Positions 26,970 through 45,587 of a stretch of 64,000 bases of DNA are shown here, one piece after another. The notes below the pieces were generated by a model, which saw only the letters and a program-made list of their open reading frames with translations, made no database searches and was not told the DNA's origin. Source of the stretch: an uncultured Chloroflexia bacterium (lineage in GTDB: Bacteria > Chloroflexota > Limnocylindria > Limnocylindrales > CSP1-4); assembly GCA_963715085.1 (NCBI GenBank), contig CAVQQU010000005.1, forward strand, positions 30,538 to 94,537. Direction: 5' to 3'. Position 1 is the first letter of the stretch, and every line of letters begins with the position of its first letter. The position numbers were made by a program, and so were the translations under genes.

Positions 26970-27095
26970 TCGCGACAGCGCCCTGTTGCGCGCCCATCCG
27001 TTCGCCGGCGAGCTTCCTGTCGCTGATCCAGGGCCAGGAGGCGTTGGCGTCGCGGTCCGCTCGGCTATAGTTGGCGCGGCCTTGTCGGCGTCCGG

Positions 27096-27404: not shown

Positions 27405-27433
27405 AAGAGGGGCGCCGACGAAGCGCCCCTCTT
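27405..27433 (-). terminator. Stem-loop 17 nt after the stop of the giant gene
   Basis: AAGAGGGGCGC / GCGCCCCTCTT forms an 11-bp stem with a 7-nt loop. The U-tract is weak (CUCUUCGAC). Confidence 0.6.
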
Positions 27434-27449
27434 ACGTGTGCGTGATGTT

Positions 27450-30400: not shown

Positions 30401-33098
30401 CCGTCAGGTCAACCTCAGCAGGCCAGCCCCAACCGGCCAGGCCACGCCAGTCCAGGAACACCAGGAAGGATGGTGGCCGGGCGTCGATCTGCGTCTGGTC
30501 GCCGTCCTCATCGGCCTGGTAGGTGTAGGTCATCATCGGCGGCAGGATGTCGAACGCGGGATCTCCGTCCGCGCTCGGGACGGAGAAGTCCGCCGTCCAT
30601 GCTCCCGCGCCGTCCGACGTCACGTTGCGCAGCGGCCATGCCTGAAGCTGATCGTCCCCCACGAAGACGACCGTCTCGGTGTTCGGCGATCCAACGCCGG
30701 AGACCGTGTCGGCCACCGGGTCGATCAGGGTCACCGTGAGGTCGATGACCTCATGAGTCTTGGCCGTCGTTCCCTGGGAGACGGTGACGACGTGGCCCGT
30801 CTGGATGTTGAAGGGAATGTCGTAGAGCTCGAAGCGCCCGTCGCCGTCGGTCTCGGCGGTCGTGGAGAAGTTGACCGCCCCAGCGACTTCGGGGTCGTCG
30901 ATCTCGATCGTGACCTCGGAGTCCGGCGCCCACTCCTGGCCCCACATGTGTTCGGGAGGCTCGATGGGGCTCACCGAGAAGAACGATGTCGGCAGGGGCG
31001 CAACCTCGGCCTCGACCACGGAGGCGCCTTCGCCACCTGGAATGTCGTTCCAGCCGATCGGGGGCCGGTTCTCGATCTCCGCGAAGTCCTCGCCGAGGTA
31101 GTCGTTCGGCTCACTGGAGAACCAGTTCGTGTACGTCACCGGTTCGCCGCTCGACCACACCCAAACGCCCTCGACGGCGATGTCGCTGAGGCCGATCCAG
31201 TACCACGTCCCGAACGTCGCCACGACCCAGTCGTTCTCGGCGGAGTCGTTGATGGTCACGAGGTGGCCGCCGAGCGAGACCGCGTGGGCCTCGGCATCGG
31301 CCCACGACATGCCGTCCTCGACGTACACGTAGTAGTGGCCCGTGGCGGGGTTGAGCTGCCACCCGTCGGGCCGGGGAACCTCCCAGTCGTACACCGTGCT
31401 GTCGGCATCGGCGTCGAATTGCTCGGCGCCTCCGGAGGTGCCTGGCACGATGTCGAACACCCACTCGTCAGGACCCGTCACCGAGAAGTCCGCCATCCAG
31501 TTCCCGGAGCCGTCCGCAGTGAAGTAGCGGTTCGCGCCCTCCGTGTAGACGGTCACCGGGCTGCCGGGTGTGGGCACGGTCCCGGACACCTGGTCGGTAT
31601 CGACGTCCACGGAGGTGACCTCGATGTCGATCACGGTGTGGGACTTCGTGGTGGCCCCGTCGGTCACGGTGACGATGTCGCCCGGCTTGGCCTCGTACTC
31701 GATGCCGACCCCGCCGCCGATGCCATCGTTGTCGGTCGGGACGACATCGAACATGGTCTGGTAGTCCGGGGAAACCACCGTCGCGGGATCGTTGATGGTC
31801 GCCGTGAGGGTGGTGGCGACTGGCCAGAACTTGACGAAGATGCTGGCCGACCCGTCGGAAGAACGGTGCACCTCGAACGCAGTTTCGTCGAAGTCACGAC
31901 TGATGGTGTTCGTCACGGTCACGGTGACCGCGACCGTCTCGTCGCCCTGGGCGATCGTCGCCGGGCTGCCGGAGATCGATGGGCCGTCGAACGTCCAGCC
32001 GCCGGGAGCTGTCGGCAGGTTCGGCTCGCTGACGACGCAGGACGTCCCGGTCGGGATGCCGCCGATCGTCGCGCTGCCGCCTGCGGGGAGGTCGACCGTC
32101 CCGTCGTGGGCGGTCCCGTCGTCGCAGTCGTAGCTGATGGCGAACGTGCCGGTGAAGCCCGAGGTGAGCGGGTCGAAGACCTTGCTGATCTTGAGGGAGC
32201 CCTCCGTCGCCTTCAAGGCGATGCTGTGATAGCCACCGGCCGCGATGGCGGTGACGCCGGTGAGCCCCGCCGGCACGGTCGTCTGCCCCTCGACGTTCCG
32301 ACCCCAGGCCACCACCGTGCCGTCGTTCTTCAGCGCGAGGCTGTGGGAGAGCCCGGCCGCGATCGCGGTGACGCCGGTGAGCCCGACCGGCACGTTCGTC
32401 TGCCCCCAGCCGTTTTCGCCCCAGGCCACCACTGTGCCGTCGGCCAGCAGCGCGAGGCTGTGGTAGCCACCGGCTGCGATCGCAGTGACGCCGGTGAGCC
32501 CCGCGGGCACGGTCGTTATCCCCCAGGCGACCACCGTGCCGTCGTTCTTCAGCGCGAGGCTAAAGCGGAACCCGGCTGCGATCGCGGTGACCCCGCTGAG
32601 CCCCGCGGGCACGGTCGCTTGTCCGTTGATGTTGTCGCCCCAGGCCACCACCGTGCCGTCGTTCTTCAGCGCGAGGCTGTGGAAGTGCCCGGCCGCGATC
32701 GCGGTGACCTCGGTGAGCCCCGCGGGCACGTTCGTCTGCCCGGAGAAGTTGAGGCCCCAGGCCACCACCGTGCCGTCGGCCATCAGCGCGAGGCTGTGGG
32801 AGTACCCGGCTGCGATCGCGGTGACCCCGCTGAGCCCCGCGGGCACGGTCGCTTGTCCGTTGATGTTGTCGCCCCAGGCCACCACCGTGCCGTCGGCCAT
32901 CAGCGCGAGGCTGTGGGAGTACCCGGCTGCGATCGCGGTGACCGCGGTGAGCCCCGCGGGCACGGTCGCTTGTCCGTAGGTGTTGTCGCCCCAGGCCACC
33001 ACCGTGCCCGGGGGTGATGCTGCGAGAGCCACCCCGGGCACCCCTGGGCCACTCAATACGAGCATGGTGGCGGCAACCGCCGCAACGATCCGTCTCAC
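27450..33098 (-). CDS. Giant exported multidomain protein: 7x RCC1-like repeats, prealbumin-like domain, repeated beta-sandwich modules, C-type lectin domain, CarboxypepD_reg-like domain, 3x Ig-like repeats
   Basis: A single uninterrupted ORF. GGAGG lies 7 nt before the GTG at 33098, followed by signal peptide VRRIVAAVAATMLVLSGPGVPGVALAA. Seven ~39-aa GTVVAWGxNxxGQxxVPAGLxxVTAIAAGxxHSLAL repeats are present. The lectin segment carries EPN and WND motifs. Three repeats of the form PPTTxIT...TPTFxFxG...FxCxxD...G.HTFxVxAxDxAxNxDxxP follow. No LPXTG motif or C-terminal TM is present. Confidence 0.9.
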   Translation of the reverse strand: MRRIVAAVAATMLVLSGPGVPGVALAASPPGTVVAWGDNTYGQATVPAGLTAVTAIAAGYSHSLALMADGTVVAWGDNINGQATVPAGLSGVTAIAAGYSHSLALMADGTVVAWGLNFSGQTNVPAGLTEVTAIAAGHFHSLALKNDGTVVAWGDNINGQATVPAGLSGVTAIAAGFRFSLALKNDGTVVAWGITTVPAGLTGVTAIAAGGYHSLALLADGTVVAWGENGWGQTNVPVGLTGVTAIAAGLSHSLALKNDGTVVAWGRNVEGQTTVPAGLTGVTAIAAGGYHSIALKATEGSLKISKVFDPLTSGFTGTFAISYDCDDGTAHDGTVDLPAGGSATIGGIPTGTSCVVSEPNLPTAPGGWTFDGPSISGSPATIAQGDETVAVTVTVTNTISRDFDETAFEVHRSSDGSASIFVKFWPVATTLTATINDPATVVSPDYQTMFDVVPTDNDGIGGGVGIEYEAKPGDIVTVTDGATTKSHTVIDIEVTSVDVDTDQVSGTVPTPGSPVTVYTEGANRYFTADGSGNWMADFSVTGPDEWVFDIVPGTSGGAEQFDADADSTVYDWEVPRPDGWQLNPATGHYYVYVEDGMSWADAEAHAVSLGGHLVTINDSAENDWVVATFGTWYWIGLSDIAVEGVWVWSSGEPVTYTNWFSSEPNDYLGEDFAEIENRPPIGWNDIPGGEGASVVEAEVAPLPTSFFSVSPIEPPEHMWGQEWAPDSEVTIEIDDPEVAGAVNFSTTAETDGDGRFELYDIPFNIQTGHVVTVSQGTTAKTHEVIDLTVTLIDPVADTVSGVGSPNTETVVFVGDDQLQAWPLRNVTSDGAGAWTADFSVPSADGDPAFDILPPMMTYTYQADEDGDQTQIDARPPSFLVFLDWRGLAGWGWPAEVDLTVTADDPVTGEKPDITLPLATNAEGFFEGGGVFPGLQPGWLITVTYGAITRTHTVRAISITDVDTATDVVRGTADPGTEVWVDVSGAEDGEGVVATADGSGEWAADFSAVYDITVGTNVGVQQKDEGGNGTNCGFEVPFPPVPIPPGTSVETEGSGTQTSGTPTVYWHDPLTVTTTGRSGGTGTATLTTSDGYVQTIPLVETPASSGTYTGTFAAPYPHHGTALISFRIDYPDDPDVEGSFTLYIDPSGVVRDTSGDPVVGATVTLYRSVDPDGPFVVVADGSSIMSPGNRSNPDLTSADGLFGWDVVAGYYKVRAEKVGCSAPGGGAFVETGVLTIPPPVTDLALVLDCLADTDPPTTTITAHPLYISDDDTPTFSFTGDDGDGSGIASFECRIDSMDFSTCESPLTLMPLTDGEHTFRVRAIDVAGNVDPTPDTDTFQVDTSPPTTSITGGPSGLTDDETPTFSFSGTDAITSIDHFECWLDGGGPSTCASGATFGPLADGQHTFYVRAVDRADNADPSPASRTWTIDATAPNTTITSHPSNPSLDTSPTFAFSGSDGSGSGVVGFRCVIDEPPSFVCTSGDTFGPLDEGEHTFYVMAIDQANNMDATPASFTWVIDLTPPTVTITSPTSAPGNVVSPSESSVDAVWSATEAGSYSVRVGGTSCTTGTVVDSGSYASGAVTSNILATELAYGANPVWVCVTDAATSTGSSTVTIYRQVPTTISYSGDTQVIEPTDPTLKATLADGQAACDVSGQTIRFYVDLTGDGDFGDAGESVGAAVTSGTSNSAVAQKPANLDPGIYLVKVEFLGTNECAASSDTDGIVTIVTPDDAATGGGWYQIVNPTPITGASKNVNFGLTTRWSDRDQAYRGQILIHDKQAWRLKGEITSYAKTSSNPLTGTASGIGKLFQWQEVAPSIYDYVLVDDSVNFKVTFTDSGSSKKGSSTKPDTFTVNWITDFSGGAVSPLVTGPSFQPLKGGNLTIR
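32201..33011. repeat. 117-nt periodic intragenic DNA repeats (RCC1-like blades), some units near-identical
   Basis: For example, the ~75-nt string GTGACCCCGCTGAGCCCCGCGGGCACGGTCGCTTGTCCGTTGATGTTGTCGCCCCAGGCCACCACCGTGCCGTC occurs at about 32588 and about 32821. Confidence 0.85.
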
Positions 33099-33121
33099 GA
33101 CGCGACCTCCCAAGGGAGCCT

Positions 33122-33204
33122 CGCGGGTCGGTCTCGCCAGTGGCTCGGCGCGGTCCCGGCGGCCGGAGTGTGGACCGCGTGTCAGAGCCTCCCGCCAACT
33201 GGTC
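33122..33204 (-). promoter_or_regulatory. Conserved structured 5' leader, copy 1 (upstream of giant gene)
   Basis: The sense RNA is ACCAGUUGGCGGGAGGCUCUGACACGCGGUCCACACUCCGGCCGCCGGGACCGCGCCGAGCCACUGGCGAGACCGACCCGCG. It ends 23 nt before the GUG start. See findings. Confidence 0.7.
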
Positions 33205-33391
33205 ACCGTAGGCGGCGGTCATCAGTCTGGCGAGAGCCAGATGGCCCGGCCGCCCGGTGCGAAGCCGGGCCTGGAGCCGCCCCCGCTCCGGCTGGGACGC
33301 ACGGGCGCTGACGCCACCTCGTGACGACACGCTAACTGGACACGTTTCGCTCGGGCCGCTGAGCACGGTGCTGTTACGCATAGCCGTTCCG

Positions 33392-33456
33392 GCCTTCCAA
33401 GCTGCATGTCGCGGGTTCGATCCCCGTCTCCCGCTCCACTCCCCGGTTTCGTGCTC
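33392..33456 (+). repeat. Right copy of 65-bp direct repeat: truncated pseudo-tRNA-Gly (3' half only)
   Basis: Identical to 27125-27189 apart from TTCGAAC>TTCGATC in the T-loop and CCCCTGTTT>CCCCGGTTT. No 5' half is present upstream. Confidence 0.9.
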
Positions 33457-33466
33457 GGGACGCTAC

Positions 33467-34432
33467 TCACTCACCGTTCGCCACGACGATGACGACCTTG
33501 CCTTGAGCGTGCCCCCGGTCCAGATACCGAAAGGCATCGGCGGTCTCAGCCAGCGGATACGTCCGGTCGAGGACCGGCGTGACCCGTCCGGCCTCGACCA
33601 GCTCCTTGAGGGCGATCAGGTCGGCGTGGTTCGGTGTCGAGACGAACGCGCGCTCCACCTGGCGCACGAACAGTGGCATCAAGAACGCTTTCAGGATGTA
33701 GCCCATGCCGGCATGCCCGCTGTTGGGCATCAGCTTCCCCCCTGGCTCGAGCACGCGCCTGTAGTCCGCGAACGAGTGACTCGCAACGTTGTCGAGGATC
33801 AAGTCGTAGCGCAGATCGCGCTCGGTGAAGTCCTCCTTGGTGTAGTCGATGACATGGTCCGCCCCGATCGATCGGATCATGTCCACGTTCGGCGAGCTGC
33901 AGACGCCGGTCACCTCCGCCCCGAGGGCCTTGGCGATCTGCACGGCGAAGGTGCCCACGCCCCCCGACGCTCCGTTGATCAGGACCTTCTGCCCGGGCTG
34001 CACCTTGCCGTGATCGCGAAGCGCCTGCAGCGCGGCCAGGGCCGACGTCGGCACGGCCGCGGCCTGCTCGAACGTCAGGTTGAGCGGTTTGTGCGCGAGC
34101 TTGCCCTCAAGGGCGACCGCATACTCGGCGCACGAGCCGCGGCACTCCCCGTACACCTCGTCACCAGGCAGGAACCGGGTCACATCCTTGCCGACCGACT
34201 CGACGACTCCCGCGCAATCGAGCCCGACGACGAAGTCCTTCTTGGGCTTCGGGAACCCGACGTACATCCGGATGGGGAACGGCGCGCCACGCATGGCGAA
34301 GTAGTCACCGGCGGCAAGTGATGCCGCATGGACACGCATCAGGACGTCGCCATCAGCGGCGACCGGCCTGTCGATCTCCCTCGGTTGGAGCACGTCCGCC
34401 GAGCCGTAGCCGACCTGGACGACTGCCTTCAT
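33467..34432 (-). CDS. Zinc-type alcohol dehydrogenase / NADPH:quinone oxidoreductase family (MDR)
   Basis: [15 protein letters not shown]...; [23 protein letters not shown]. Its ATG overlaps the upstream paralogue's stop (ATGA at 34429-34432). Confidence 0.85.
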
Positions 34433-35419
34433 GGCGTTCCCCCGATGACGACAACGATGTTCCCCAGCTTCTGGCCGGTCTCGGCGTACCGGTGCGCCTC
34501 GACCATCTGCTCGAGCGGGAAGCTCCGGTCGACGATCGGGCGCAGTCGCCCCGCTTCGACCAGGCCGCGCAGGTAGGCAAGGTCCTCGCCCGTCGAGCGC
34601 GATGGAATGAACGACACCCGCTTCCTGCTTCCCCTCGCCGCCCACCGGGCGCGAACGATCTGCAGGAAGCCCGGATTGGCCATGAGCAGCCATCCGTTCT
34701 CGGTCAGCCGACCTCACCATGCGAGCGGACGGTGTGCCGCGGACCACGTCGAAGATGACGTCGTAGGTCTCGGGGCCGGCGGTGAAGTCCTCCTGGGCGT
34801 AGTCGATGACGCGATCCGCGCCGATCGCGCGCAGCATCTCCAGCTTGGGCGCACGGTCCACCGCGGTCACGTGCGCCCCGAGGTCCTTGGCGAGCTGGAC
34901 CGCGAACGTGCCGAAGCTCCCTCCCGCGCCGTTGACGAGGACGCGCTGCCCGCTGCGGACGTTCGCCTTCCGCAGGAACGCCAGGGCCTCGCCTCCCCCG
35001 TAGGGGACGGCCGCGGCCTCCGCGTAGTCCAGGTTCGCCGGCATCGTCGTGATCGCCCCGGTCTGGGGGTTCTCGCGCAGGCAGATGTACTCCGCGTAGG
35101 CTCCCAGGGGGATGCCCGTCGCCGCGAAGACCCGGTCGCCCTTCCTGAGCGACCTGACCTTCTTGCCGACCGCGTCGACGTCACCGGCGAGCTCCTGCCC
35201 GAGCACGCGTCGTCGCGGTTTGCGGATGCCGAACGCCAGCCGCATGGGCACCCAGATCCAGGGGGCGAAGTCGAACCTCCGCAGCTCGCAATCGGCCGCG
35301 CTGACCGTCGTGGCGCGGATCCGGACCAGCACCTCGTCGTCCTTCGGAACCGGCTTTCGCACGTCCCGAAGTCGAAGGACATCCGGTGGCCCGTAGGCCT
35401 GGCACACGATCGCTCTCAT
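34429..35419 (-). pseudogene. Second MDR quinone-oxidoreductase paralogue, one apparent frameshift near 34690-34740
   Basis: MRAIVCQAYGPPDVLRL...VNGAGGSFGTFAVQLAKDLGAHV is in ORF 33467..35419. The C-terminus ...[49 protein letters not shown] is in ORF 34429..34683. Confidence 0.8.
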
Positions 35420-35534
35420 GGGTCTCCACTTCGTTCAGTCCGTCAAGAGGCGCAGGTCAGCGTACTTCCGCCCACCCGGTGCGCGTCCCATCACGGCAAG
35501 CCGGAGCGGAGCGCCCGGTGCGGATCCGGGCTGG

Positions 35535-36218
35535 CTACTTCACCTGCTGCTTCGACACCGCGGTCGCGTACTTGTTGATCTGCTCGGGAGTCACCGGATT
35601 CTTGAGTTTCCAGCCCCAGGCGCCCGTGGTCCAGAACTTCGCGCCTGGGCACTTCGGGGTGGCGCTTGTCAGGACCTTCTTCTGGAGGACCTTGCCGGTC
35701 GCCGCGACGACGACGCGGACCGTCACCTTGTCCTGGTATCGGACGACCTCGCCGACCTCGCCAGCCTCCGTCTTGTAGAGGCCGCACGTGCCCGCCTTCT
35801 TGTCTGCGCTGTCGTAGCACACGACGAGCTGGATCGGGCTCGGCCATGGCCAGCCACTCGTCCGGAACCCCTCGTTGATGTCGACGTCGTAGGCCAGCCA
35901 CCCGTTGTTCATATCGAAGACGACAAGGGGGTGGACCTCGCCGGCATAGGGCGCGGCTCCCGGCACGGGCGTCCCGCCGTAGCAGGCATCGAAGAGCTCG
36001 AGCCGGAGATCCCGTTCGACCTCCCAGTTGACGTCCAAGCCCCCCTCTGGCCAGCCGCTCGACCATGGGCTTGGCTCGGGGGTGGGCGTGGGCTCGGGGC
36101 GTGGGGTGATCTGCCGCGGCGTGGCGGAGGGTGAGGACGCCCCGCAGCCAGCAAGCACCACGACGGCCAAGACGCAGATGAGCAGCTGCCGACGGTGGGA
36201 GCGCGAGACCGCGTCCAT
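35535..36218 (-). CDS. Lipoprotein of unknown function (paralogue 1)
   Basis: GGGGAGG lies upstream of the ATG. Lipobox VVVLAGC, then a Pro/Thr linker. Conserved motifs are shared with the next gene. Confidence 0.7.
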   Translation of the reverse strand: MDAVSRSHRRQLLICVLAVVVLAGCGASSPSATPRQITPRPEPTPTPEPSPWSSGWPEGGLDVNWEVERDLRLELFDACYGGTPVPGAAPYAGEVHPLVVFDMNNGWLAYDVDINEGFRTSGWPWPSPIQLVVCYDSADKKAGTCGLYKTEAGEVGEVVRYQDKVTVRVVVAATGKVLQKKVLTSATPKCPGAKFWTTGAWGWKLKNPVTPEQINKYATAVSKQQVK

Positions 36219-36347
36219 GACCTCCCCTTCCGAGATGCCCGCTGCGGGAAACGTCGCAGCCAGCCATGTTGCCGACGAGAGCCGAACGGCCCCCCAGGAC
36301 GCCCAATGCGTGTCCTGTCCTCCGGGAATGGCAGAGCGCCGGGTGGC

Positions 36348-36980
36348 CTACTCCACCGGCTGCTCCGATACCTTCGCCGCGTACTCGTCGATCTGGTCGA
36401 GTGTCACGTTGTCCCCGAGGAAGCTCCAGGGTGGCGCGGCTCCCACGACCATGCCCGTGCTGGCGGGACATTTCGTCTTGGGACCCACCAGCGTTGTTGT
36501 CTGGAGGGTCTTGCCGGTCCGCGCGACGACCACTCGTATCTTCACCGCGTCCCGAAGGCGAAGGAGCTCGCCGCTCACTCCTTCGACCATCGTGTAGATC
36601 CCGCACGAACCACCGGGCTTGGGCTTCGCGGGTTCGGGGCAGACGATCAGCTGGATCGTCGGGCTCGCCCACTCGCCATCACGCCACTTCCCGTTGATGT
36701 CGTAGTCGGGCAGCCAGCTCCATACGCCAGCCTTTCCATGGGGCCCTGCGATCACGAGAGGGTGCACGGTGCCGGCGTAGGGAGCGGCCCACGCGACGGG
36801 CTCCCCGTAGCAGGCCCTGATCAGCTCGGTTTCGGGCGCTGGTGTCGGCAGCGGCGTCGGCGCTGCGGTCGGGGCCGGCGTCCGGGCGGTGGTGGGCGTC
36901 ACGGGCGATGGAAGGCCGGTTGATGCCCCACCTCCGCAGCCAGCGAGGGCCACGGTCAGGGCGAGCAACAGGCGGCGCAC
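36348..36980 (-). CDS. Lipoprotein of unknown function (paralogue 2)
   Basis: GGAGGA lies 7 nt before the GTG at 36980. Lipobox LTVALAGC. Shares the motifs ACYG, APYAG-VHPLV, IQL(I/V)VC, G-CG-Y, V-(I/V)RVVVA-TGK-LQ and KCP with 35535..36218. Confidence 0.7.
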   Translation of the reverse strand: MRRLLLALTVALAGCGGGASTGLPSPVTPTTARTPAPTAAPTPLPTPAPETELIRACYGEPVAWAAPYAGTVHPLVIAGPHGKAGVWSWLPDYDINGKWRDGEWASPTIQLIVCPEPAKPKPGGSCGIYTMVEGVSGELLRLRDAVKIRVVVARTGKTLQTTTLVGPKTKCPASTGMVVGAAPPWSFLGDNVTLDQIDEYAAKVSEQPVE

Positions 36981-37127
36981 CGACGGTTCCTCCAGCCGCC
37001 AGTCTAGGCCCCGCGTTGCCCAGTGCGCGTCCATCCCGACGGCCGGAGCGGAACGCCCGGTGTGGAGCTGAGGGCCGACAGCGGCATGCAGGCCTGGGCC
37101 GGCGTAGTTCTGCCGATGACACAGCAG

Positions 37128-37157
37128 GACCCCCGACAGCCGAACCGCCGGGGGTCC
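37128..37157 (-). terminator. Stem-loop after the stop of 37171..37740
   Basis: GGACCCCCG...CGGGGGTCC forms a 9-bp GC stem, 14 nt downstream of the stop on the minus strand. Confidence 0.55.
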
Positions 37158-37170
37158 CGCGCTACGGTCG

Positions 37171-37740
37171 TTAGGCCCGGTAGACCTTCATCTTGACCTG
37201 TGCAGACAGTCCGTTCAGGTCGCCGGTGTACTTGTACGTGCCGGTCGGGTAGTCGTTGTCGATCCGGAGCGGAGTGGCCGAGCCGCTCAGCCCGTAGGTG
37301 AAGCCGTCGATCAGCGTGCAGTCCGCCATCTGGTCGCGGCACTGAAGGAAGAAGAACGGGGCGGTCCCGGCGATCTGCCTGGCCATCTGGTCGCAGTACG
37401 CGAGAAGCGTGACGTCACTCGTGGTCAAGCAAGACCACTTGGCGTTGAAGTAAGCCGCCAGCGCGGCCTTCTGGGTGTCACTCGCTTTCAGGACGAAGGG
37501 ATAGCGAGTGTCATCCGGAATGAGCGGGTCCGCTACGGTGTTCACGACGTCCAACGCCATCAGCCCGGGGTTCCCGGTGGTCGGGATGAAGAACCCGCCC
37601 TTGTACGACCCGGCGGCGAGACTGTCCTGACCCTCGATCCAGAGGTCCGTCGAGAACGTGGCGGGCTTGGCGGCAGCCACCGGGCCGGCGACCACCGCGA
37701 CGAGCGCGAGGGCAGATAGAACCGCGATGAACCGACGCAT
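37171..37740 (-). CDS. Secreted hypothetical protein (189 aa, Cys-containing)
   Basis: GGAGG lies 5 nt before the ATG at 37740. Signal peptide MRRFIAVLSALALVAVVAGPVAAA. The longer ORF call to 37839 only translates the conserved leader. Confidence 0.7.
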   Translation of the reverse strand: MRRFIAVLSALALVAVVAGPVAAAKPATFSTDLWIEGQDSLAAGSYKGGFFIPTTGNPGLMALDVVNTVADPLIPDDTRYPFVLKASDTQKAALAAYFNAKWSCLTTSDVTLLAYCDQMARQIAGTAPFFFLQCRDQMADCTLIDGFTYGLSGSATPLRIDNDYPTGTYKYTGDLNGLSAQVKMKVYRA

Positions 37741-37762
37741 GCGACCTCCTTGGGGCGCCATC

Positions 37763-37844
37763 CGCGGGTCGGTCTCGCCAGTGGCTCGGCGCGGTCCCGG
37801 CGGCCAGGGTTTGGGCCGCGTGTCAGAGCCTCCCGCCAACTGGT
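37763..37844 (-). promoter_or_regulatory. Conserved structured 5' leader, copy 2
   Basis: The sense RNA is ACCAGUUGGCGGGAGGCUCUGACACGCGGCCCAAACCCUGGCCGCCGGGACCGCGCCGAGCCACUGGCGAGACCGACCCGCG. It ends 22 nt before the AUG. Confidence 0.7.
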
Positions 37845-37984
37845 AGCCGGTCTACTCCGACCAACCGTCGCCGTCTATGTCCGTTGTGCCTCTCTTGGTC
37901 CGTTGCGCCATTTCTGGCGGCAATTCTCGTTGAGGGCCGATCGACCGTGTACGAGGGAGTCAGCCTGGAGCTGCCTTCGCCGGC

Positions 37985-38105
37985 TATGGCCCGATGCCGC
38001 TCGCGTTGACTGGCCGCACCGCCGACGGCCTGATCGTCCAATTGGCGGATCCGGACCGGATCCGCTGGACGGTCGGCCTCATGCGTGAGCCTGCCGAGAC
38101 AGCCC
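37985..38105 (+). pseudogene. Fragment resembling an LLM-class (F420/flavin-dependent) oxidoreductase
   Basis: Only ~40 aa (LALTGRTADGLIVQLADPDRIRWTVGLMREPAETA). No N- or C-terminal remainder is present. Confidence 0.3.
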
Positions 38106-38131
38106 GAGCCGCCCGCCGTCGACTCGACCCG

Positions 38132-38659
38132 TCAGTAGAGCCACGGGATCAGCCGGCGCGTGCGCCGCCGGTAGGCTGCGTAGCCGGCGAACTGCTCGGC
38201 GAGCCACGCTTCCTCGCGGCGTGACTTGAGGTCGAAGAAGACCCCCAGCACGAAGGCGCCCGCGAGGGCCAGGGGCGAGGCCATGACGAGGCCCCAGCCG
38301 AGACCGACGATCACGCCGCCGCCGTCCATCGGGTGCCGGACGAGCCCGAAGACACCGTGCTCGATGAGGCGGCCACCCGGCACCGGCCGCGGATACGCGG
38401 TCAGCTGGCGTCGGAGCCCGAGGATGCCGGCGATCACGAGACCGACGCCGAGGGGGATCAACGGCAGTCCGGCGCTCGCCCCGACCACCCTCGCCGAGCC
38501 GTTCCAGAGCGGTCCCACGAACCCGGCGGCGATGATGCCAACGAAGAGGAGGAGCTGGAGGACGACCCAGCCTTCGCCGCGCCGACCGAGGTCCGGCAGG
38601 CGAACACGGTTGGTGATCAGGGAGTGCGCCTTCGTCGAGATCATCGTCCTACCTCTCAC
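38132..38659 (-). CDS. Isoprenylcysteine carboxyl / phospholipid methyltransferase-family membrane protein
   Basis: Multi-TM protein with ...GLVRHPMDGG...REEAWLAEQFAGYAAYRRRTRRLIPWLY, typical of the ICMT/PEMT family. Confidence 0.7.
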   Translation of the reverse strand: MRGRTMISTKAHSLITNRVRLPDLGRRGEGWVVLQLLLFVGIIAAGFVGPLWNGSARVVGASAGLPLIPLGVGLVIAGILGLRRQLTAYPRPVPGGRLIEHGVFGLVRHPMDGGGVIVGLGWGLVMASPLALAGAFVLGVFFDLKSRREEAWLAEQFAGYAAYRRRTRRLIPWLY

Positions 38660-38984
38660 GTCCGAGCTGGCCCGCGATGATCGCGAGCCCGCAGGCGATC
38701 AGCCCGAGTGCGAAGACGGGGATCTCCATGCCGGCCAGGGCGCCGAGCCCGGCCAGGAGCGCGCCCGCCCCAATGATCACGCCGAACCGGTCGATCGGTA
38801 GGCCGATGTACAGCCGGGTGGCGTTTGCGCCGAGCATCAGGAGGCCCAGGCCCACCAGCCAGGTGCCGTCGGGCACGCCGGGGACGAGGACGAGGACCCC
38901 GGTCATCAGGAGCAGGAGCCCCCAGCCGATCACGTCGATCCGGCCGGAGATGTCGTGTCGTCCCATGTTCGCTGCCGTTCCCAT
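38649..38984 (-). CDS. Small 4-TM membrane protein (hypothetical)
   Basis: Hydrophobic ORF overlapping the next gene's start by 11 nt. Start uncertain (38984 or 39053). Confidence 0.45.
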   Translation of the reverse strand: MGTAANMGRHDISGRIDVIGWGLLLLMTGVLVLVPGVPDGTWLVGLGLLMLGANATRLYIGLPIDRFGVIIGAGALLAGLGALAGMEIPVFALGLIACGLAIIAGQLGRER

Positions 38985-39058
38985 CGCTGTGTCTCCCCGG
39001 GGGAGGAGCCCCCGCATTGATGTCGCGTCGGGCCTTCCAAGCTCAGCCTTCATCGCGA

Positions 39059-39149
39059 CGTTGACAGACTAGAAGAACGAACGCTCGCTTTGCATGTGCC
39101 ATTCGGCCCTATTCTGGATGTGCTAGAGTGACCAGACAGCAAAGGAGCG
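39059..39149. promoter_or_regulatory. Lower-GC divergent intergenic region with inverted-repeat arms (candidate TetR operator)
   Basis: CTAGAAGAACGAACGCTCGC (39059-39078) faces GGAGCGCTCGTTCTAG (39134-39149). Confidence 0.35.
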
Positions 39150-39184
39150 CTCGTTCTAGTTGAGTGCCATGAGGAGGCCAGTAC

Positions 39185-39817
39185 ATGCCACGGATCACGG
39201 CTGAGCACGAGGCAGAGAAGCGCAAGCACATCCTCGACGCCGCACGCCGGGTGTTCGTCGCGAAGGGCTTCCACGAAGCGAGCATCGACGACGTCGTCGC
39301 CGAGAGCGGCGTCTCCGTGGGCGCCATCTACAACTACTACGGGGGGAAGGACGAGCTGATCCACGAGAGCATCCTGGCCGCGATCAACGTCGAGGCGGAC
39401 GCCGTCCTCGCGGACGGCCGGTTCGTCGGCAACGCGCGCGCCAAGATGGAGCGGGCGATCTGGGGGTACTTCGACTTCACGATCGACGCGCCCGGCGCTG
39501 CCGCCTTCCTCGTCCAGTGCTGGGCGTTGGCGTCGCAAAGGCCCCTCATCCGCGACCTCCTCGTCCGGCGCCGCGAGCGTACGGTGACGGTCGCCGTGCT
39601 CATCGGCCGCGAGGCCGTCGAGACCGGCGAGCTGCCGGCGGGCTTCGATGTCGAGGCCATGGCCCGGGGGTTCACCGCCCTGCTCGACGGCCTCGTCCTC
39701 CAGCGCGTGGAGGAGGGCGACGCCTACCGCCGCGCCGACATGGAGCGGCGGGTGCTGGCGTTCCTCGACCTGGTCGCCCCGCGCCGGCCCGCTGACGGCG
39801 TGAGCTGGAGAGAGTGA
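39185..39817 (+). CDS. TetR/AcrR-family transcriptional regulator
   Basis: HTH segment KRKHILDAARRVFVAKGFHEASIDDVVAESGVSVGAIYNYYGGKDEL. GAGGAGG lies upstream of the ATG. Confidence 0.9.
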   Translation: MPRITAEHEAEKRKHILDAARRVFVAKGFHEASIDDVVAESGVSVGAIYNYYGGKDELIHESILAAINVEADAVLADGRFVGNARAKMERAIWGYFDFTIDAPGAAAFLVQCWALASQRPLIRDLLVRRRERTVTVAVLIGREAVETGELPAGFDVEAMARGFTALLDGLVLQRVEEGDAYRRADMERRVLAFLDLVAPRRPADGVSWRE

Positions 39818-39830
39818 CGGGCCCCGGCCG

Positions 39831-40370
39831 TTACGGACGCGGCCGGCGCGCGGCGAAGCGCGGCGCCCACAGCCCGATCCCGATGCCGAAGGCGGCGTGG
39901 CCGAGGAGCATGATCCGGTTGAGCCGCGCCGCGTCGCCGGACCGGAGACCGAACCAGCCGTAGCCCATCGACGGGAACATGACGAGGAGCGGCAGCGCGG
40001 CCGTCGCGATGCCGTACGCCGTCCCCACCGCCAGGCTCGTTCGGTCATTCCCGCTACGCGGAAGAAGCACGAATGCCTCGGTGAGGATGACGCCCGTGGC
40101 GTAATGGGTGAGCATGCCCAGCGCAAGCTCACCGCGGACGGCCGGCTCGCTAGTGATCTCGATCTCATCGCGGCGCCAGCGGCCGCGCGCCAGGTCCGCC
40201 GCCCATCGCCCGATCATGTCCGGGCCGAGACGTTCCGAGGTGAAGGCGCTGCCGCCGAAGCGCTCGGCGGTCACCATCGCGATGTCCATGGTGACGGTCG
40301 CCAGCACGCCCGCCGGCACCCCGGCCGGAACACGGATCGAGCGGCTGCGATGATCGCTCATTGCCGGCAA
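39831..40370 (-). CDS. Membrane protein (DUF2938-like, tentative)
   Basis: 179 aa with 4-5 hydrophobic segments. The family name is from memory only. Confidence 0.45.
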   Translation of the reverse strand: MPAMSDHRSRSIRVPAGVPAGVLATVTMDIAMVTAERFGGSAFTSERLGPDMIGRWAADLARGRWRRDEIEITSEPAVRGELALGMLTHYATGVILTEAFVLLPRSGNDRTSLAVGTAYGIATAALPLLVMFPSMGYGWFGLRSGDAARLNRIMLLGHAAFGIGIGLWAPRFAARRPRP

Positions 40371-40426
40371 TTATCCGCCGCGCGCTGGCGTTTGGGGGAA
40401 GCCGAGACGACTGCTCGAGGGTGCCC

Positions 40427-41425
40427 CTATGCCCCGGTGGTCCGACGCGCTTCGGCGTCTCGTGGGCTCTCACGGGACAGCATCTGGACCTGCTCGGCAA
40501 CCTGACACCCGATCGCCCTGCACTTCGTGATCCCATCACCCTCGACGTAGTCGGACACGCCCTTCGAGTCGGAGAAGTCGCATCCAGTGATCTTCTGGCA
40601 CTGGGTGCTGCCGAACTCGCTCGCGAACCACTTCGCCAGGCGGTTCCCGCGGTTCATGCTGGCGTTGAACTTGTTGAGGTGGTCACCGAAGGCGTCTCCG
40701 CCGACCGTCATGATGGCGAGCAGGCGGGCGACCCGCAGGCGGCTGTTCTCGATCTCCCCGTCCTTGAGGCCGATCGCCATCACACCCGCCGTGAGCGCGC
40801 TGCACGTCCTGCCCATGAACAGCGTCCCGCCCATGTACGCCGAGGTGGCATCGAACAGCTCGCGGTGCTCGGCGGGTGAGTAGCCTAGGTGGCCGAGCAC
40901 GGCCTGGGCGCAGTGGAACTCGCTCTCCACGAAGTGCGAGTACAGCCTCGAGTAGGCCGGCCGGGTGCTCTCCGGGATGGCATCCGGTCGGGCGTCGTCG
41001 AGCGCGCCCCGCCAGAGCTCCGCCGAGCGCAGGACCGGACCGACGCACTGCCGCGGGAAGCCTTCCTTCGTTCGGATCTCCCGGCACTGGAGCGTCCCCT
41101 GGCAGGCGAGGAAGTCGCGGCACAGCGCATGCCCCCGGTCGAAGAGCACCGGAAGACCGCGGTCAACCTCGCGCAGGCCGTGCTGGGTGCCCATCATCGC
41201 GAGGGGCGAGGTGACGGCCCCGCACTCGTGCCCCGTGTTGCCGATGCCCCCCGGCATGCCGGCGCTCAGCCTGACGAGCCACTCCTTGTCTGTCGATGAG
41301 ACATCGAGGATCGTCTTCATCGCTGTCGGAGCACAGTGGCCCATCCTCAGCAGGTTGGAGAAGGCCTGCCTCCGGTAGCTCCAGTTCGGCGCCGGGCCTG
41401 GTCGAGGTGGCGTCTGCGTCTCCAT
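40427..41425 (-). CDS. C_GCAxxG_C_C-family (putative redox-active) protein, two-domain
   Basis: GHECGAVTSPLAMMG and GRTCSALTAGVMAIG motifs, plus C-terminal Cys pairs (QCQKITGC, KCRAIGC). No signal peptide. Confidence 0.6.
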   Translation of the reverse strand: METQTPPRPGPAPNWSYRRQAFSNLLRMGHCAPTAMKTILDVSSTDKEWLVRLSAGMPGGIGNTGHECGAVTSPLAMMGTQHGLREVDRGLPVLFDRGHALCRDFLACQGTLQCREIRTKEGFPRQCVGPVLRSAELWRGALDDARPDAIPESTRPAYSRLYSHFVESEFHCAQAVLGHLGYSPAEHRELFDATSAYMGGTLFMGRTCSALTAGVMAIGLKDGEIENSRLRVARLLAIMTVGGDAFGDHLNKFNASMNRGNRLAKWFASEFGSTQCQKITGCDFSDSKGVSDYVEGDGITKCRAIGCQVAEQVQMLSRESPRDAEARRTTGA

Positions 41426-41504
41426 CAGGCCTGCCCTGCCAGTCTTGCCAGGATCGAGGACGGCGCGGTGTGCATGGTCACTGTGGCCCTCTCGGGACGC
41501 ATCC

Positions 41505-41585
41505 CGCGGGTCGGTCCCGCCAGTGGCTCGGCGCGGTCCCGGCGGCCGGGGTCTGGACCGCGCGTCGCAGCCTCCCGCAGCTGGG
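41505..41585 (-). promoter_or_regulatory. Conserved structured 5' leader, copy 3
   Basis: The sense RNA is CCCAGCUGCGGGAGGCUGCGACGCGCGGUCCAGACCCCGGCCGCCGGGACCGCGCCGAGCCACUGGCGGGACCGACCCGCG. It lies 29 nt before a 16-codon uORF AUG and 79 nt before the main AUG. Confidence 0.65.
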
Positions 41586-41646
41586 ACGCTGACGGACGTG
41601 CGCCGGATTGGCGAGTGGCAAACGGCCCGACCTCGGCTGACATGGC

Positions 41647-41677
41647 GTCTGGCCGCCGGTCGTCCCGGCGGCCAGAC
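41647..41677 (-). terminator. 13-bp perfect stem-loop after the binding-protein gene
   Basis: GTCTGGCCGCCGG-TCGTC-CCGGCGGCCAGAC, 12 nt downstream of the stop at 41690. No U-tract. Confidence 0.5.
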
Positions 41678-41689
41678 GGCCGCTTCGGA

Positions 41690-43174
41690 CTACCTCTTGC
41701 CCGGCCAGGAGCCGGTGAAGTCGCTGGCCCTGTAGTAGCCCGTGTCGATCAGGGCCGCCTGGATGTTGGCCCGGGTGACGGTGACGCTCGGCAGGAGCGA
41801 TGCCGGGACCGAGACGACGCCGTTGTCGGAGGTTGCGTTCGTGGCCGGGGTGCCGCCCGACATGAGGGTCGCGGCCGCCGCGAGACCCGCCCGCACGCGG
41901 GCGCGGGGATCCTTGAAGACCGTCATCCCCTGGGTTCCGTTGATGAGGTACTGGACCCACGCCCTGTCCGCGTCCTGCCCAGTCGCGAAGAAGGTCGTGA
42001 CGTCCGGGTCGGCCTCGAAGACGTCCGTGATCGCGCGGGCGGTGGTGTCGTTGGGAGCCAGGACGAAGGCCGTGCTCTTGGCGGCCGCCGGGACGGCTGC
42101 GAGGTTGCCCGCCGCCAGGGTCCGCGCGGTGCCGAAGTCCCAGTTGGTGGTGATCTGGGTGATGACCGACCCGAGCTGTTCGCGGCTGAGGGTGGGGCTC
42201 CCCGCCAGCGAGGTCGCCACGCTCGAGTTGCGGATCACGAAGGTGCCGTCGGCGACCTTGGGCTGGAGCTTGCCCCAGGCGCCATCGAGGAATACGAAGG
42301 AGTTGTCGTCGGCGGGGTTGCCCGCGTACAGGTACAGGTTGTTGCCGGTGGTCGCACCGGCTCGGTCGATCAGGTACTGAGCCTGCGCCGCGCCAACAGC
42401 CAGGCGGTCGAAGTCGAGGTGGTAGTCGACCGCCGCCGTCCCGCGGATCAGCCGGCCGTACGCGATGACCTTGACGCCCGCTGCCCGTGCCTCGTCGGCC
42501 GCGACGGCCGCCGCCGCGGCGTCCTGGGGGCAGAGGAGAAGGATGCGAGTGCCCTGCCGGATGAGCGCCCGAACCTGCGCCAGCTCCGTCACCGCGTCCT
42601 GGCTCACGAGGACCCGTGCGCCGTACGCCGTGGCGGGGAGAGTCTTCCAGAATGCCGCCAAGTCCGGCCAGGTCGACGGCACCACGACGCCGATCGGCGC
42701 ATAGAGGACCGTGACGACGCCGCACTTGACCCCGCCGGTCGTGCTGCTGCCGACCCGGATGGCGATCTTCCCGGCGCTCGTGGTCGCGGCCTTGATCAGC
42801 TTGACCTGGGTGGCCGTGAGGCTCGAGGTCCGGGTCGCGGTGCCGGAGCTCGTCGTCCTGATCGCCGGGAACCTGATGAGCGCCGCTCCGGCGGACCCAC
42901 ATGTTCCCTTCGAGAGCGTGACCGGCAGGTACGTGGCCGCCCGCAGCTTCGCCAGCTTGAGGGCGAGCGACCCCGACCCAGTCGTGTACGCGGAGATCGT
43001 CGCCGTGCCGTTGGCCCCGGAGGGGCCGACCTTCGCCCGCCACGAGGCGCCCACCGTGGCGGCGCTGGCGGGCGAGACCACCGTCATCACCAGGATGGCG
43101 GCCATGGAGAGCGACAGGCCGGCGCCCAGCCGGCGCCGACCCAGATACGTGGCTCGCATCGCACCCACCTTCAT
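41690..43174 (-). CDS. Exported periplasmic-binding-protein-like (sugar-binding type I fold) protein with extra ~120-aa N-terminal domain
   Basis: AGGAAGG lies 5 nt before the ATG at 43174. Signal peptide ...LSLSMAAILVMTVVSPASA. The C-terminal ~370 aa resemble ChvE/XylF-type binding proteins (ILLLCPQDAAAAAVAADEARAAGVKVIAYGRLI...). No permease or ATPase gene is nearby. Confidence 0.6.
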   Translation of the reverse strand: MKVGAMRATYLGRRRLGAGLSLSMAAILVMTVVSPASAATVGASWRAKVGPSGANGTATISAYTTGSGSLALKLAKLRAATYLPVTLSKGTCGSAGAALIRFPAIRTTSSGTATRTSSLTATQVKLIKAATTSAGKIAIRVGSSTTGGVKCGVVTVLYAPIGVVVPSTWPDLAAFWKTLPATAYGARVLVSQDAVTELAQVRALIRQGTRILLLCPQDAAAAAVAADEARAAGVKVIAYGRLIRGTAAVDYHLDFDRLAVGAAQAQYLIDRAGATTGNNLYLYAGNPADDNSFVFLDGAWGKLQPKVADGTFVIRNSSVATSLAGSPTLSREQLGSVITQITTNWDFGTARTLAAGNLAAVPAAAKSTAFVLAPNDTTARAITDVFEADPDVTTFFATGQDADRAWVQYLINGTQGMTVFKDPRARVRAGLAAAATLMSGGTPATNATSDNGVVSVPASLLPSVTVTRANIQAALIDTGYYRASDFTGSWPGKR

Positions 43175-43198
43175 CACGACCTTCCTGGGACGCGATCT

Positions 43199-43276
43199 GC
43201 GGTCGGTCTCGCCGGTGGCTCGGCGCGATCCCGCCGACCGGGCGTGGACCGCGTGTCGGGGCTTCCCGTCACCAGT
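43199..43276 (-). promoter_or_regulatory. Conserved structured 5' leader, copy 4 (most divergent of the four)
   Basis: The sense RNA is ACUGGUGACGGGAAGCCCCGACACGCGGUCCACGCCCGGUCGGCGGGAUCGCGCCGAGCCACCGGCGAGACCGACCGC. It ends 24 nt before the AUG. Confidence 0.65.
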
Positions 43277-43344
43277 CACAGATGCGGCTCGCGGTCCGAG
43301 TGTCCCACGCCGCTGCATCGTGCGGTCCCACTCGCGGCGCGGGG

Positions 43345-45587
43345 CTACCGCGTGGCCGGGTCGGGCTCGACCAGGAGGCTGGCCGGCAGGCGCTGCACGC
43401 CCGATGGTCCGAGCGCCCACAGGGTGCCGTCGGGGGCGAAGGAGAGGGCGTTGAAGAAGGATCCGGCGAGGAGGAGGCTCCAGCGCCGTCCATCGAAGTG
43501 GGCCAGGCCCTGGCCCGTGGCCACCCACAGGCCTCCGTCCGGAGCGATCGCGAAGCCATTCGGCGCCACCAGGCTTCCGGGCTGCGCCAGATCGTCGGGG
43601 GGGCGGTGGACCGTCCAGGTCGCGCCGTCGTACCGGGCGACTGCCCAGTCCGTCTGGTCGTGGCCGGTGGTGAGCGCCAGGAGATCCCCGTTCGGAGCGA
43701 GGGCCAGGCCGGCGACGTCGCCCAGGTGGTATTCGCCGAGCTGGGACCCCCGGGTCCAGCTCGTGCCGTCGAAGCGGTGCAGCTCCCGGCCCCAGCCCTG
43801 GCTGAGCAGCCACCGCCCACCGTCGGGTGCCCTGACCAGCGCCGCCGGCCAGCCGATCGAGGTCACGGCCGGAAGGGCGTTCCGCACCCAGGCCCGGCCG
43901 TCGAAGCTGAACGAGGCGACGGTCGTCTGGGTGCCCTCCGACGGTCGCTCGCCGACCCAGATCGCGCCGTCGTCGGCGATGGTGACCGCGTGCGCCTCCT
44001 CCTCCGCGAGGACGGTCCAGCGTCCGGCTCGCAGCACCGCCGTGCCCTGGTCCGTCGCCACGGCGAGCGTGCCGTCGGGAGCGCGGTCGACGTCGAAGGC
44101 CCGCATCGGCGGCTTCCAGCCGGCGACCGGGACTCGGGTCCACCTGCCGTCGCGCACGTGCCACAGGCCATCGTCGCTGGCGGCCCACGCTTCGCGGGCG
44201 GAGACCGCCAGCAGCTTCTGCGCCCAGGCCGGGGCCGCGGCCGGCGATCGACCGACCCGCACCCAGCGATCGCCCGAGAGCCGGTAGAAGCCGTCGCGAG
44301 TCGCGGCGATCACGGCCTGGCTCGACGCGGCCACCGCGGTGATGGTGGCCCGATTGGGCTCCGGCGCCGGCAGGCCGTCAGCGCTGTCGTAGACGGTCCA
44401 GGACCCGCCGTCGACATGGGCGACGGCGATCCCGGAGTGCGGACCCCACTCGTCGCCGGGCAGGCTCACCGAGCCCGTTGCCAGCCAGGCCGAGCCGTCC
44501 GGCGCCGCGGCGAGTGAGACGGTCCCGGAGAGGTCGACCGCGTCGGTCGCGGCGCTCGTCCAGGTCTTCGCCTGGTAGTGCCCGAGCCCACCGAATGCCA
44601 ACCAGAGGGATCCGTCGTCCGCTGCCACGAGCGACACCGGCCATGCGTTCGCCCCTCCCCGGTCGGCGGTCCACGCGGGATCGCTCGGCGGGGTCGACCA
44701 CGTCGTGCCGTCGAAGCGGCTGACGTCCGTCGTGAGCTCAGGGGCGACCCACACGCCGCCCGCCGCATCGACGGCGACGTGGGCGATCGTGAACGACGGC
44801 TGCGGGCGGCAGACAGCCGTCCAGGACGTGCCGTCCCAGTGGGACACCACGCCCTGGTCCGCAGGTCCGTCGGCAGGGCCGGCGTTTGCGGCGACCCAGA
44901 GCGACCCGTCGGGAGCCTCGCCGACGTCGACGATCCAGGCGGCCTGGGACGCCGTCGCCGGGGCGGCGATGACGTCGCGGAACTGCTCGCCGTCGAACCA
45001 GGCGATGGTCGACCCGTCCCAGAGCCAGACGCCGCCCTCACGCGCCGGGACGATGCTCCACGCGCCGAAGAGCTCGTCGTCGGCGAACGTCCAGCTCGCG
45101 GTCATGACGCCCCGCGCGTCCAGGCGCGTCAGCCGGCCATTGCCTGTGGCCCAGAAGCCACCCAGGGCATCCGCGACCAGGCTCGGTTCGCCGCCTATCC
45201 AGGGCGTCAGGACGTCAAACCCCGTCGGCGCCAGGGGACGGGGATGGCGGGGGATCGGCGCGGTCAGGGCCGCGATGTGCGGGGGCTACGCAGGGCGGAG
45301 GAGTCGGAGCCGCCACACGGGGCGAGACCGTCGGGCTCCAGCGTGGCGTGGGCGACGGGGCGACCACCGCCGCCGGCGAGGAGCGCGGGGGCGGGCGCGA
45401 CGGGGGTCTTGTTCAGGATGGCGAGTCCGGCGACCGAGGCGACGGCGACGACGACGACAGCCAGGCCCGCCCGGGGCGGGAGGCCTCTCTGCGGCACACG
45501 CGACGGCGGGACCTCGACTGCCACCGTGCTCTCAGCCTCCAGCGTGGTGCGGCCATTGTCCCACCGCGGTACAGGTTGCCGGCCCAT
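43345..45587 (-). pseudogene. Membrane-anchored beta-propeller repeat protein (Reg_prop/WD-like blades), one apparent frameshift near 45270-45290
   Basis: The N-terminal TM anchor (AGLAVVVVAVASVAGLAIL) is in ORF 45264..45587. The propeller frame is open from about 45288 (FDVLTPWIGGEPSLVADALGGFWATGNGRLTRLD...) and runs into ORF 43345..45105, which has many DG-(S/T)-(W/L)-W-(V/L)-A blades. Confidence 0.55.

Follow-up and report, generated by a model that had tools for sequence, protein, structure and literature searches.

Four 5′ leaders of the c-di-GMP-II-GAG riboswitch family precede exported-protein genes in a 64-kb stretch of Chloroflexia DNA

The DNA considered here, referred to as the window, is a 64-kb stretch from an uncultured Chloroflexia bacterium, and its minus strand carries four copies of a structured element, each placed just ahead of a protein-coding gene. 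The element is real, and it belongs to a family already described in Rfam, not to a new riboswitch class: a scan of the whole window with Rfam 15 at gathering thresholds returned five matches, one tRNA and four c-di-GMP-II-GAG riboswitch aptamers (RF03169). On the sequence matches, it is close to certain that the four elements are members of this curated family, which is a sequence variant of the class II aptamer for cyclic di-GMP (c-di-GMP). The best explanation overall, to which we give a probability of about 85%, is that they are RF03169 5′ leaders that would control translation, probably as switches turned on by their ligand. An earlier reading of the same DNA from its letters alone (the sequence-only reading) had proposed an unclassified leader with a pseudoknot. 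In kind the proposal was right, since the element is a cis-acting 5′ leader with a pseudoknot-type structure, but it erred in calling the class new and in two of the three helices that it drew. "Unclassified" does not apply because all four copies are significant full-length Rfam matches, well above the gathering score, a result that the sequence-only reading had itself placed first among those that would speak against it.

RF03169 is a riboswitch aptamer model of clan CL00127, 86 positions long and with a gathering score of 40 bits; the GAG in the variant's name stands for three binding-site nucleotides. Each of the four matches, all on the minus strand, spans the full model (positions 1–86): copy 1 at 33117–33201 (78.5 bits), copy 2 at 37758–37842 (77.4 bits), copy 3 at 41500–41584 (66.4 bits) and copy 4 at 43192–43275 (48.4 bits). 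Copy 4 is the most diverged, and in the Rfam alignment it has several P1 mismatches plus one mismatch in the inferred pseudoknot. RF03169 was the top member of its clan at 4/4 window copies, outscoring both canonical c-di-GMP-II (RF01786) and the GCG variant at each of them; cmscan keeps the single best clan member per place and does not display the lower clan scores. Direct alignment of the segments picked out by the sequence-only reading gives a block of ~85 nucleotides (nt), near-identical in copies 1–3 and more diverged in copy 4, with a mean column identity of 88% after trimming. It confirms four copies at the places that had been reported, all on the minus strand, although the Rfam-defined aptamers extend about 5–7 nt further 3′ than the ends given there. 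A 21-nt core, GAGCCANNGGCGRGACCGACC, occurs exactly four times in the window and always on the minus strand (0.5 expected by chance; 0/100 shuffles reach four), and GCGAGACC is present in every window copy except copy 3, which has GCGGGACC.

The family is much larger than the window. Scanning for an exact pattern in GTDB, with each species represented by one genome, yielded at least 120 loci, and a covariance model built from the four window copies on the Rfam structure, run over loci L001–L120, found 77 further copies in L001–L099 and 8 in L100–L120, at least 85 in all. Rfam's own model called 28/28 sampled homologues RF03169, again as the top member of the clan. Among the matches listed, the hosts are mostly uncultured Chloroflexota (metagenome-assembled genomes, MAGs, labelled Chloroflexia or Limnocylindrales), with Actinomycetota also present, including Cellulomonas and Nitriliruptoraceae. 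Many of the 8-kb loci among these matches hold two or three RF03169 copies; the window has four in 10 kb.

These homologues make it possible to follow the fold pair by pair. The Rfam structure consists of P1 (GCGGG with CCCGC, plus a variable outer part), P2 (GGC with GCC) and P3 (CGCGGNCC with GGNCCGCG). In an alignment of 81 sequences, which was fitted to this structure so that its counts are biased in the structure's favour, 10/11 pairs of P1 and 8/8 of P3 change on both sides, and one pair of P2 is GC in 59 sequences and CG in 8. All helices together pair in 83.3% of cells (P3 in 87.6%), compared with 31–42% in slid registers, and 0/500 shuffles reach the observed values. The sequence-only reading had called for a covariation check with more homologues, and that check supports the Rfam P1, P2 and P3. 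The class II architecture is pseudoknotted, and the Rfam structure line displays no pseudoknots; from complementarity together with that architecture, the P3 loop CGGyCGCC would be joined to the 3′ strand GGCG..ACCG. This putative pseudoknot pairs in 86.9% of cells and is specific to its register (18–43% when slid). Six loci from Nitriliruptoraceae MAGs (L029, L039, L052, L063, L071 and L078) carry an extra hairpin of ~20–35 nt inside the P3 loop.

The copies also lie where 5′ leaders should lie. From the Rfam 3′ end to the start codon there are 18, 17 and 17 nt in copies 1, 2 and 4; measured from its own shorter element ends, the sequence-only reading had correctly counted 23, 22 and 24 nt to GTG 33098, ATG 37740 and ATG 43174, and 29 nt to ATG 41475 of an upstream open reading frame (uORF) behind copy 3. 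Across the family, a Shine-Dalgarno sequence (SD) and a same-strand open reading frame (ORF) come after 69/81 copies, and the start codon lies at a median of 20 nt past the aptamer (interquartile range 16–24). Each mRNA probably begins with its copy of the element or a very short way ahead of it.

A block of DNA shared by several copies just upstream of the aptamer looks like a dedicated promoter that would place the transcription start at the aptamer's first bases. Before copy 1 (33205–33236, minus strand) two promoter-like boxes, CTCTCGCCAGA (33226–33236) and TACGGT (33205–33210), are separated by 15 nt, and 3 nt more lead to aptamer nt 1. A shared upstream block, GGGCCGTT.GCCTCTCGCCAGA-N15-TACGGT (33205–33250, minus strand at copy 1), precedes 8 other copies in 8 other loci and ends 3–5 nt ahead of aptamer nt 1; promoter-like boxes as a whole end 3–8 nt ahead of it. 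A CTCT.G.C box is found in 9/73 flanks (0.3 expected), and TAnnnT ending 1–10 nt before the aptamer in 18/73 (3.1 expected). A scan for the sigma-70 consensus promoter returned nothing, which is uninformative for a genome of about 73% G+C. A similar upstream block lies before copy 3 (about 41590–41635). Genes without a riboswitch can have it too, as at 36270–36300 (minus strand) before a lipoprotein gene. In a second group of loci, T(G/A)GGA(C/G)AAT takes its place.

All four genes behind the leaders encode proteins with signal-peptide-like or twin-arginine-like N-termini, and Pfam bears out the descriptions already given of them. Copy 1 precedes a gene (27450–33098, minus) for an exported protein of 1882 amino acids (aa) with RCC1_2 repeats, DUF5979, Lectin_C and Big_13 domains and a signal-peptide-like N-terminus; its 1882-codon frame from GTG 33098 has a G+C content of 0.90 at third codon positions. 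Seven tandem 117-nt units at 32094–33080, in the 5′ end of this giant gene, are its RCC1_2 repeats, that is, ordinary protein-repeat DNA. Copy 2 precedes a gene for a 189-aa secreted protein (37171–37740, minus) with a signal-peptide-like N-terminus and no Pfam domain. After it, on the same strand, come two paralogous lipoproteins (35535–36218 and 36348–37034, minus), 40% identical, with an LAGCG lipobox and no Pfam domain. Because a G+C-rich hairpin lies 3′ of the stop codon of the 189-aa gene, the gene and the lipoproteins appear to be separate transcription units. Behind copy 3, an 18-codon uORF (MTMHTAPSSILARLAGQA; 41425–41481, minus) with its own SD, GAGAGGG, runs from GTG 41481 or ATG 41475 to TGA 41427–41425, and the stop codon shares its A with ATG 41425 of a gene for a 332-aa C_GCAxxG_C_C protein (40427–41425, minus; PF09719, E = 1.1e-25) with a twin-arginine-like N-terminus. 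Because of this TGATG overlap, the sequence suggests that copy 3 acts on the 332-aa gene through translational coupling to the uORF. Copy 4 precedes a gene for a 494-aa exported Peripla_BP_4 protein (41690–43174, minus; PF13407, E = 6.5e-26).

The same diversity is seen across the family. By BLASTP, 52/75 downstream proteins are singletons, and these include all four of the window, which have no homologues among the other riboswitch-led genes. Signal-peptide-like N-termini are found in 50/69 downstream proteins and a lipobox in six. The Pfam domains that recur are SRPBCC/Polyketide_cyc2 (six), SnoaL_2 (four), Kelch propellers (three) and collagen repeats (two); a serpin, a subtilase and a beta-helix protein appear once each, and solute-binding proteins are also among the single cases. 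Disparate gene sets of this kind are typical of second-messenger riboswitches such as GEMM (PMC7266159).

By analogy with the parent family, c-di-GMP itself is the default ligand, and we rate it at slightly better than even odds; the sequence-only reading had guessed at a cyclic dinucleotide, in agreement with that family. Somewhat less probable, and the strongest of the alternatives, is that the RF03169 aptamer senses a signal other than c-di-GMP (another cyclic dinucleotide or a related nucleotide), in which case the four genes would be part of a regulon for that other signal. Rfam lists GAG and canonical c-di-GMP-II as distinct families, and at every copy the GAG model scores above the others of its clan. 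Weinberg et al., who defined the variant in 2017, are said to have raised the idea that variants of c-di-GMP-I and c-di-GMP-II might recognise different signalling molecules, and full-text searches of the accessible literature, which did not include that defining paper, turned up no ligand assignment for c-di-GMP-II-GAG. Changes of ligand among variants within a parent riboswitch class are, moreover, well documented (PMC7266159). Three considerations pull the other way. First, at some of the window matches a further clan member scores above its own gathering threshold too (three lower-scoring matches), which places the fold very close to the parent. Second, a diverse set of secreted and surface proteins is the usual target of c-di-GMP riboswitches. 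Third, the sequence data point to no specific alternative ligand.

Whatever the ligand, control is most likely exerted when translation starts, as terminators are lacking behind the copies: there is no terminator-like site in window positions 32900–43600, and none of the 81 copies has a TTTT in the 60 nt that follow it. What does follow the aptamer, on the minus strand in each case, is a short C-rich motif and then a strong SD. At copy 1 (33096–33116) these are CUCCC (33112–33116) and GGGAGG (33106–33111), followed by GGUCG and the GTG start 33098; at copy 2 (37738–37757), GCCCC (37753–37757) and AAGGAGG, followed by GUCGC and ATG 37740; at copy 3 (41425–41499), CGUCCC (41494–41499) and GAGAGGG, followed by the 18-codon uORF; and at copy 4 (43172–43191), GUCCC (43187–43191) and AGGAAGG, followed by GGUCG and ATG 43174.

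A plausible mechanism makes use of the aptamer's own 3′ end. Without ligand, the C-rich 3′ strand GACCGACCCGC and the downstream (G/U)CCC motif would pair with the G-rich SD and the start region; ligand binding would lock the GACCGACCCGC strand into the pseudoknot and P1, and the SD would be freed, giving an ON switch. We lean, without great confidence, towards this role of the tail as a general anti-SD and towards the ON direction that goes with it. In folded leaders, the main partners of the SD within the aptamer are nt 75–81, and the predicted unpaired probability of SD and start rises from 0.476 with the tail (nt 69–85) free to 0.610 with it locked (Wilcoxon p = 8e-7, n = 56); for copy 2 the two values are 0.40 and 0.63. 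In the unconstrained minimum-energy fold of copy 1, 4/6 SD bases (G91, G93, G95 and G96) pair with aptamer nt 75–77 and 79, and GGUCG (nt 95–99, its first two G being SD bases) pairs with nt 72–76. Class II c-di-GMP switches with bound ligand are described as activating translation (PMC7583470), and the ON direction agrees with those descriptions and with the exported-protein cargo.

The sequence-only reading had anticipated part of this. It proposed that an invariant 3′ tail, ACCGACC, occludes the SD by pairing with the GGUCG that follows it. Within that tail, ACCG is the last part of the 3′ strand of the putative pseudoknot, and CC is the first part of CCCGC, the 3′ strand of P1. The proposed pairing is present in three window copies, and the helix seen in the minimum-energy fold of copy 1 is the same one; it does not hold as a family-wide device. 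GGUCG was tried as a general anti-tail element and rejected: it occurs in 6/68 leaders against 3.6 expected, GGUC occurs in 14/68 against 8.7 (p about 0.05), and exact complements to the tail reach no greater length in the leaders than in shuffled ones. GGUCG is a feature of window copies 1, 2 and 4 and of a few homologues only. The more general feature, that the conserved C-rich tail can occlude a G-rich SD, is partly supported by the predicted folds. The six Nitriliruptoraceae loci stand somewhat apart: they have long leaders of about 40–55 nt in which, by eye, a tail-complementary element ~25 nt downstream of the aptamer varies in step with the tail (CGACCCG/CGGGUCG in L052 and L039, CGGCCCC/GGGGCCG in L071), which may point to a switching helix conserved within the clade.

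Several results weigh against an ON switch for c-di-GMP with the pseudoknotted fold. The covariation of the inferred pseudoknot is no better than in shuffles, both strands being nearly invariant. In copy 4, locking the tail brings no gain in SD accessibility (0.58, against 0.65 with the tail free). Swapped tails give 0.486 where cognate tails give 0.476, so the tail effect is generic; with no cognate advantage in this control, the idea that outer P1 co-evolves with the start region was rejected. Energies of the duplex between tail and SD region are likewise no better than in shuffled leaders (−12.2 vs −11.5 kcal/mol, p = 0.16). No c-di-GMP synthase or phosphodiesterase (GGDEF, EAL or HD-GYP) was found by Pfam among ~35 scanned ORFs of the window, where gene calling is poor in the right-hand 20 kb; this says little, the window being 64 kb of a genome. 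RNAalifold, run on 24 extended sequences, pairs the leader CgUCC with the aptamer 5′ GGGAgG, which would allow the opposite logic. Finally, ligand, direction and mechanism are inferred throughout.

The RNAalifold pairing is the starting point for an OFF switch in the same family, which we regard as a tentative alternative and a rather doubtful one. According to this scheme, (C)GUCCC is a local anti-SD and aptamer GGGAGG (nt 9–14), which has the same sequence as an SD, is the anti-anti-SD: without ligand, GGGAGG (9–14) would hold GUCCC and leave the SD free, whereas ligand would lock nt 9–14 in P1/P2, release GUCCC to bind the SD and lower translation. The motif itself is well marked. (C)GUCC(C) lies 0–5 nt past the 3′ end of the Rfam model, with the SD next on its 3′ side and the start codon about 17–21 nt away. 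It is strongly enriched at this place: GUCC is present in 31/68 leaders where 5.9 are expected (0/500 shuffles), and GUCCC in 30% of riboswitch leaders but in 6% of 199 other SD-bearing starts of the same loci (Fisher's test for GUCC against such starts, p = 1e-4). Across the thermodynamic ensemble, GUCC finds its partners mostly in the SD or just downstream of it (0.34 of a total paired probability of 0.76), and the minimum-energy folds of copies 3 and 4 pair CC(C) of GUCCC with GG(G) of the SD, the full CCC with GGG in copy 3. On the other side, many leaders have GUCCC only 0–2 nt from an SD GGGAGG (e.g. GUCCCGGGAGG), too close for a hairpin, and the proposed pairs are almost invariant and so offer no covariation. 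Locking the whole aptamer raises predicted SD accessibility, and the published description of ligand-bound class II switches is of ON switches (PMC7583470). The cargo also argues for ON. Adhesin-like exported proteins fit induction at high c-di-GMP in the general biology of that messenger.

A broader reading concerns how the riboswitch genes came to be where they are. A 65-nt direct repeat with 97% identity occurs at 27125–27189 and 33392–33456 (plus strand); its first copy is the 3′ half of a tRNA-Gly(TCC) gene (27096–27171) plus 18 nt, and the pair brackets a 6.2-kb segment with nothing in it besides copy 1 of the riboswitch, its promoter-like block and the giant RCC1/lectin gene. Two homologue loci are built alike. 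L046, from an uncultured "Chloroflexia" MAG that is the closest relative among the matches listed (71–77% nucleotide identity over several genes), has the same tRNA-Gly, whose 3′ part is present together with flank in three direct copies (1386–1581, 2871–3067 and 6678–6801), with a riboswitch and two SnoaL-like genes between the first two. In L023, a 71-nt repeat derived from tRNA-His (1810–1880 and 6529–6599) brackets all three riboswitch genes. Window positions 33124–33462, which span repeat, promoter and riboswitch, are 77% identical to L046, but the two have different cargo genes. The G+C content of the window from ~27000 to 43500, which includes all four riboswitch genes, is 0.66–0.70 against 0.73–0.76 in the flanks, consistent with acquired DNA. 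No integrase was found by Pfam of the ORFs in or next to the bracketed segments of the window and L046, gene calling being poor in the window's right-hand 20 kb. One could combine these observations with a changed ligand and suppose that the GAG variant senses another second messenger and that the genes it regulates spread as small integrase-less cassettes accumulating in tandem at tRNA genes of soil Chloroflexota. Such cassettes may consist of an att-like (attachment-site-like) tRNA fragment, a promoter, the riboswitch and an exported-protein gene. The combination is speculative and we consider it unlikely as a whole; if true, it would describe a mobile, signal-controlled repertoire of surface proteins.

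Two other genes of the window may be recorded here. The gene for an AAA_16 protein at 50963–53386 (plus) is 74% nucleotide-identical to L046 4826–6787 (minus), whose product also matches a class III nucleotide cyclase domain (Guanylate_cyc) and adjoins a TPR protein; the protein of L046 and the window is possibly a STAND-type cyclase and regulator. An ORF at 58352–59128 (plus) matches both Phd/YefM antitoxin and PIN toxin domains and is probably a toxin-antitoxin pair merged by a crude ORF call.

Two further explanations retain hardly any probability. The unclassified class of the sequence-only reading was a P1-closed H-type pseudoknot with P1 formed by CCAGUUGGC/GCCACUGG and a pseudoknot GGCGG/CCGCC. 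The four window copies do contain its complementarities to the letter, with apparent compensation in copy 4, but beyond the significant full-length Rfam matches of all four it is contradicted by the 81-sequence alignment, in which only its P2, identical with the Rfam P3 and covarying at every pair, stands family-wide. Its P1 pairs in 51.9% of cells, the 5′ bases varying freely against an invariant 3′ partner; its pseudoknot pairs in 73.7%, equal to the shuffle mean, with zero compensatory change, and the 5′ strand of that pseudoknot takes up bases of the covariation-supported Rfam P1. Equally improbable is a dispersed repeat like repetitive extragenic palindromic sequences or miniature inverted-repeat transposable elements (REP/MITE), or a mobile promoter module devoid of riboswitch function, spread by the tRNA-associated cassettes: the copies do cluster (four in 10 kb here, two or three per 8-kb locus elsewhere), lie in segments bracketed by tRNA-derived direct repeats and are in some cases accompanied by the promoter-like block, but in place of the random orientation and position expected of such repeats they keep strictly to the strand of the ORF and to their spacing from the start codon, compensatory changes preserve their helices across phyla, and they match a curated aptamer model over its full length.

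As a riboswitch discovery the four leaders are of no importance, since an Rfam scan annotates all of them. Their interest is of other kinds: the data suggest that the curated model stops short of a conserved platform motif, GUCCC; four natural aptamers with differing P1 strength, in front of four different exported-protein genes, suit ligand and reporter tests; and the tRNA-repeat cassettes hint at how surface-protein genes controlled by a second messenger move in poorly studied soil Chloroflexota.

Comparison with known systems places the window elements closest to c-di-GMP-II-GAG (RF03169) as curated: they share its P1/P2/P3 architecture and 5′ untranslated position at 48–78 bits over the full length, and the aptamer shows no difference from it, while the (C)GUCCC leader motif and the upstream promoter-like block lie outside the model. 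The canonical c-di-GMP-II riboswitch (RF01786) belongs to the same Rfam clan; it is reportedly due to Lee et al. in 2010 and its structure (PDB 3Q3Z) to Smith et al. in 2011. That structure reportedly also has a pseudoknot and a kink-turn. Its ligand is recognised by a triple helix (PMC7583470), and its regulon is typically one of surface or adhesion proteins (PMC9481103), much like the exported-protein cargo here. The window elements differ from it in scoring better with the GAG model, in having high-G+C Chloroflexota and Actinomycetota, not Clostridia, as hosts, and in a platform that is probably translational and has no terminator. The repeats of the window, L046 and L023 resemble those of tRNA-targeted genomic islands, in which att is a duplicated tRNA 3′ end, but the segments here are small (1.3–6.2 kb), hold little beyond riboswitch-led genes and lack a detected integrase. 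The fold of c-di-GMP-I (GEMM), finally, is unrelated, with no sequence or structural match in the window elements, yet GEMM is likewise a second-messenger switch placed before a large and disparate gene set, and its c-AMP-GMP-sensing (cyclic AMP-GMP-sensing) variants provide the precedent for a change of ligand within a parent class (PMC7266159).

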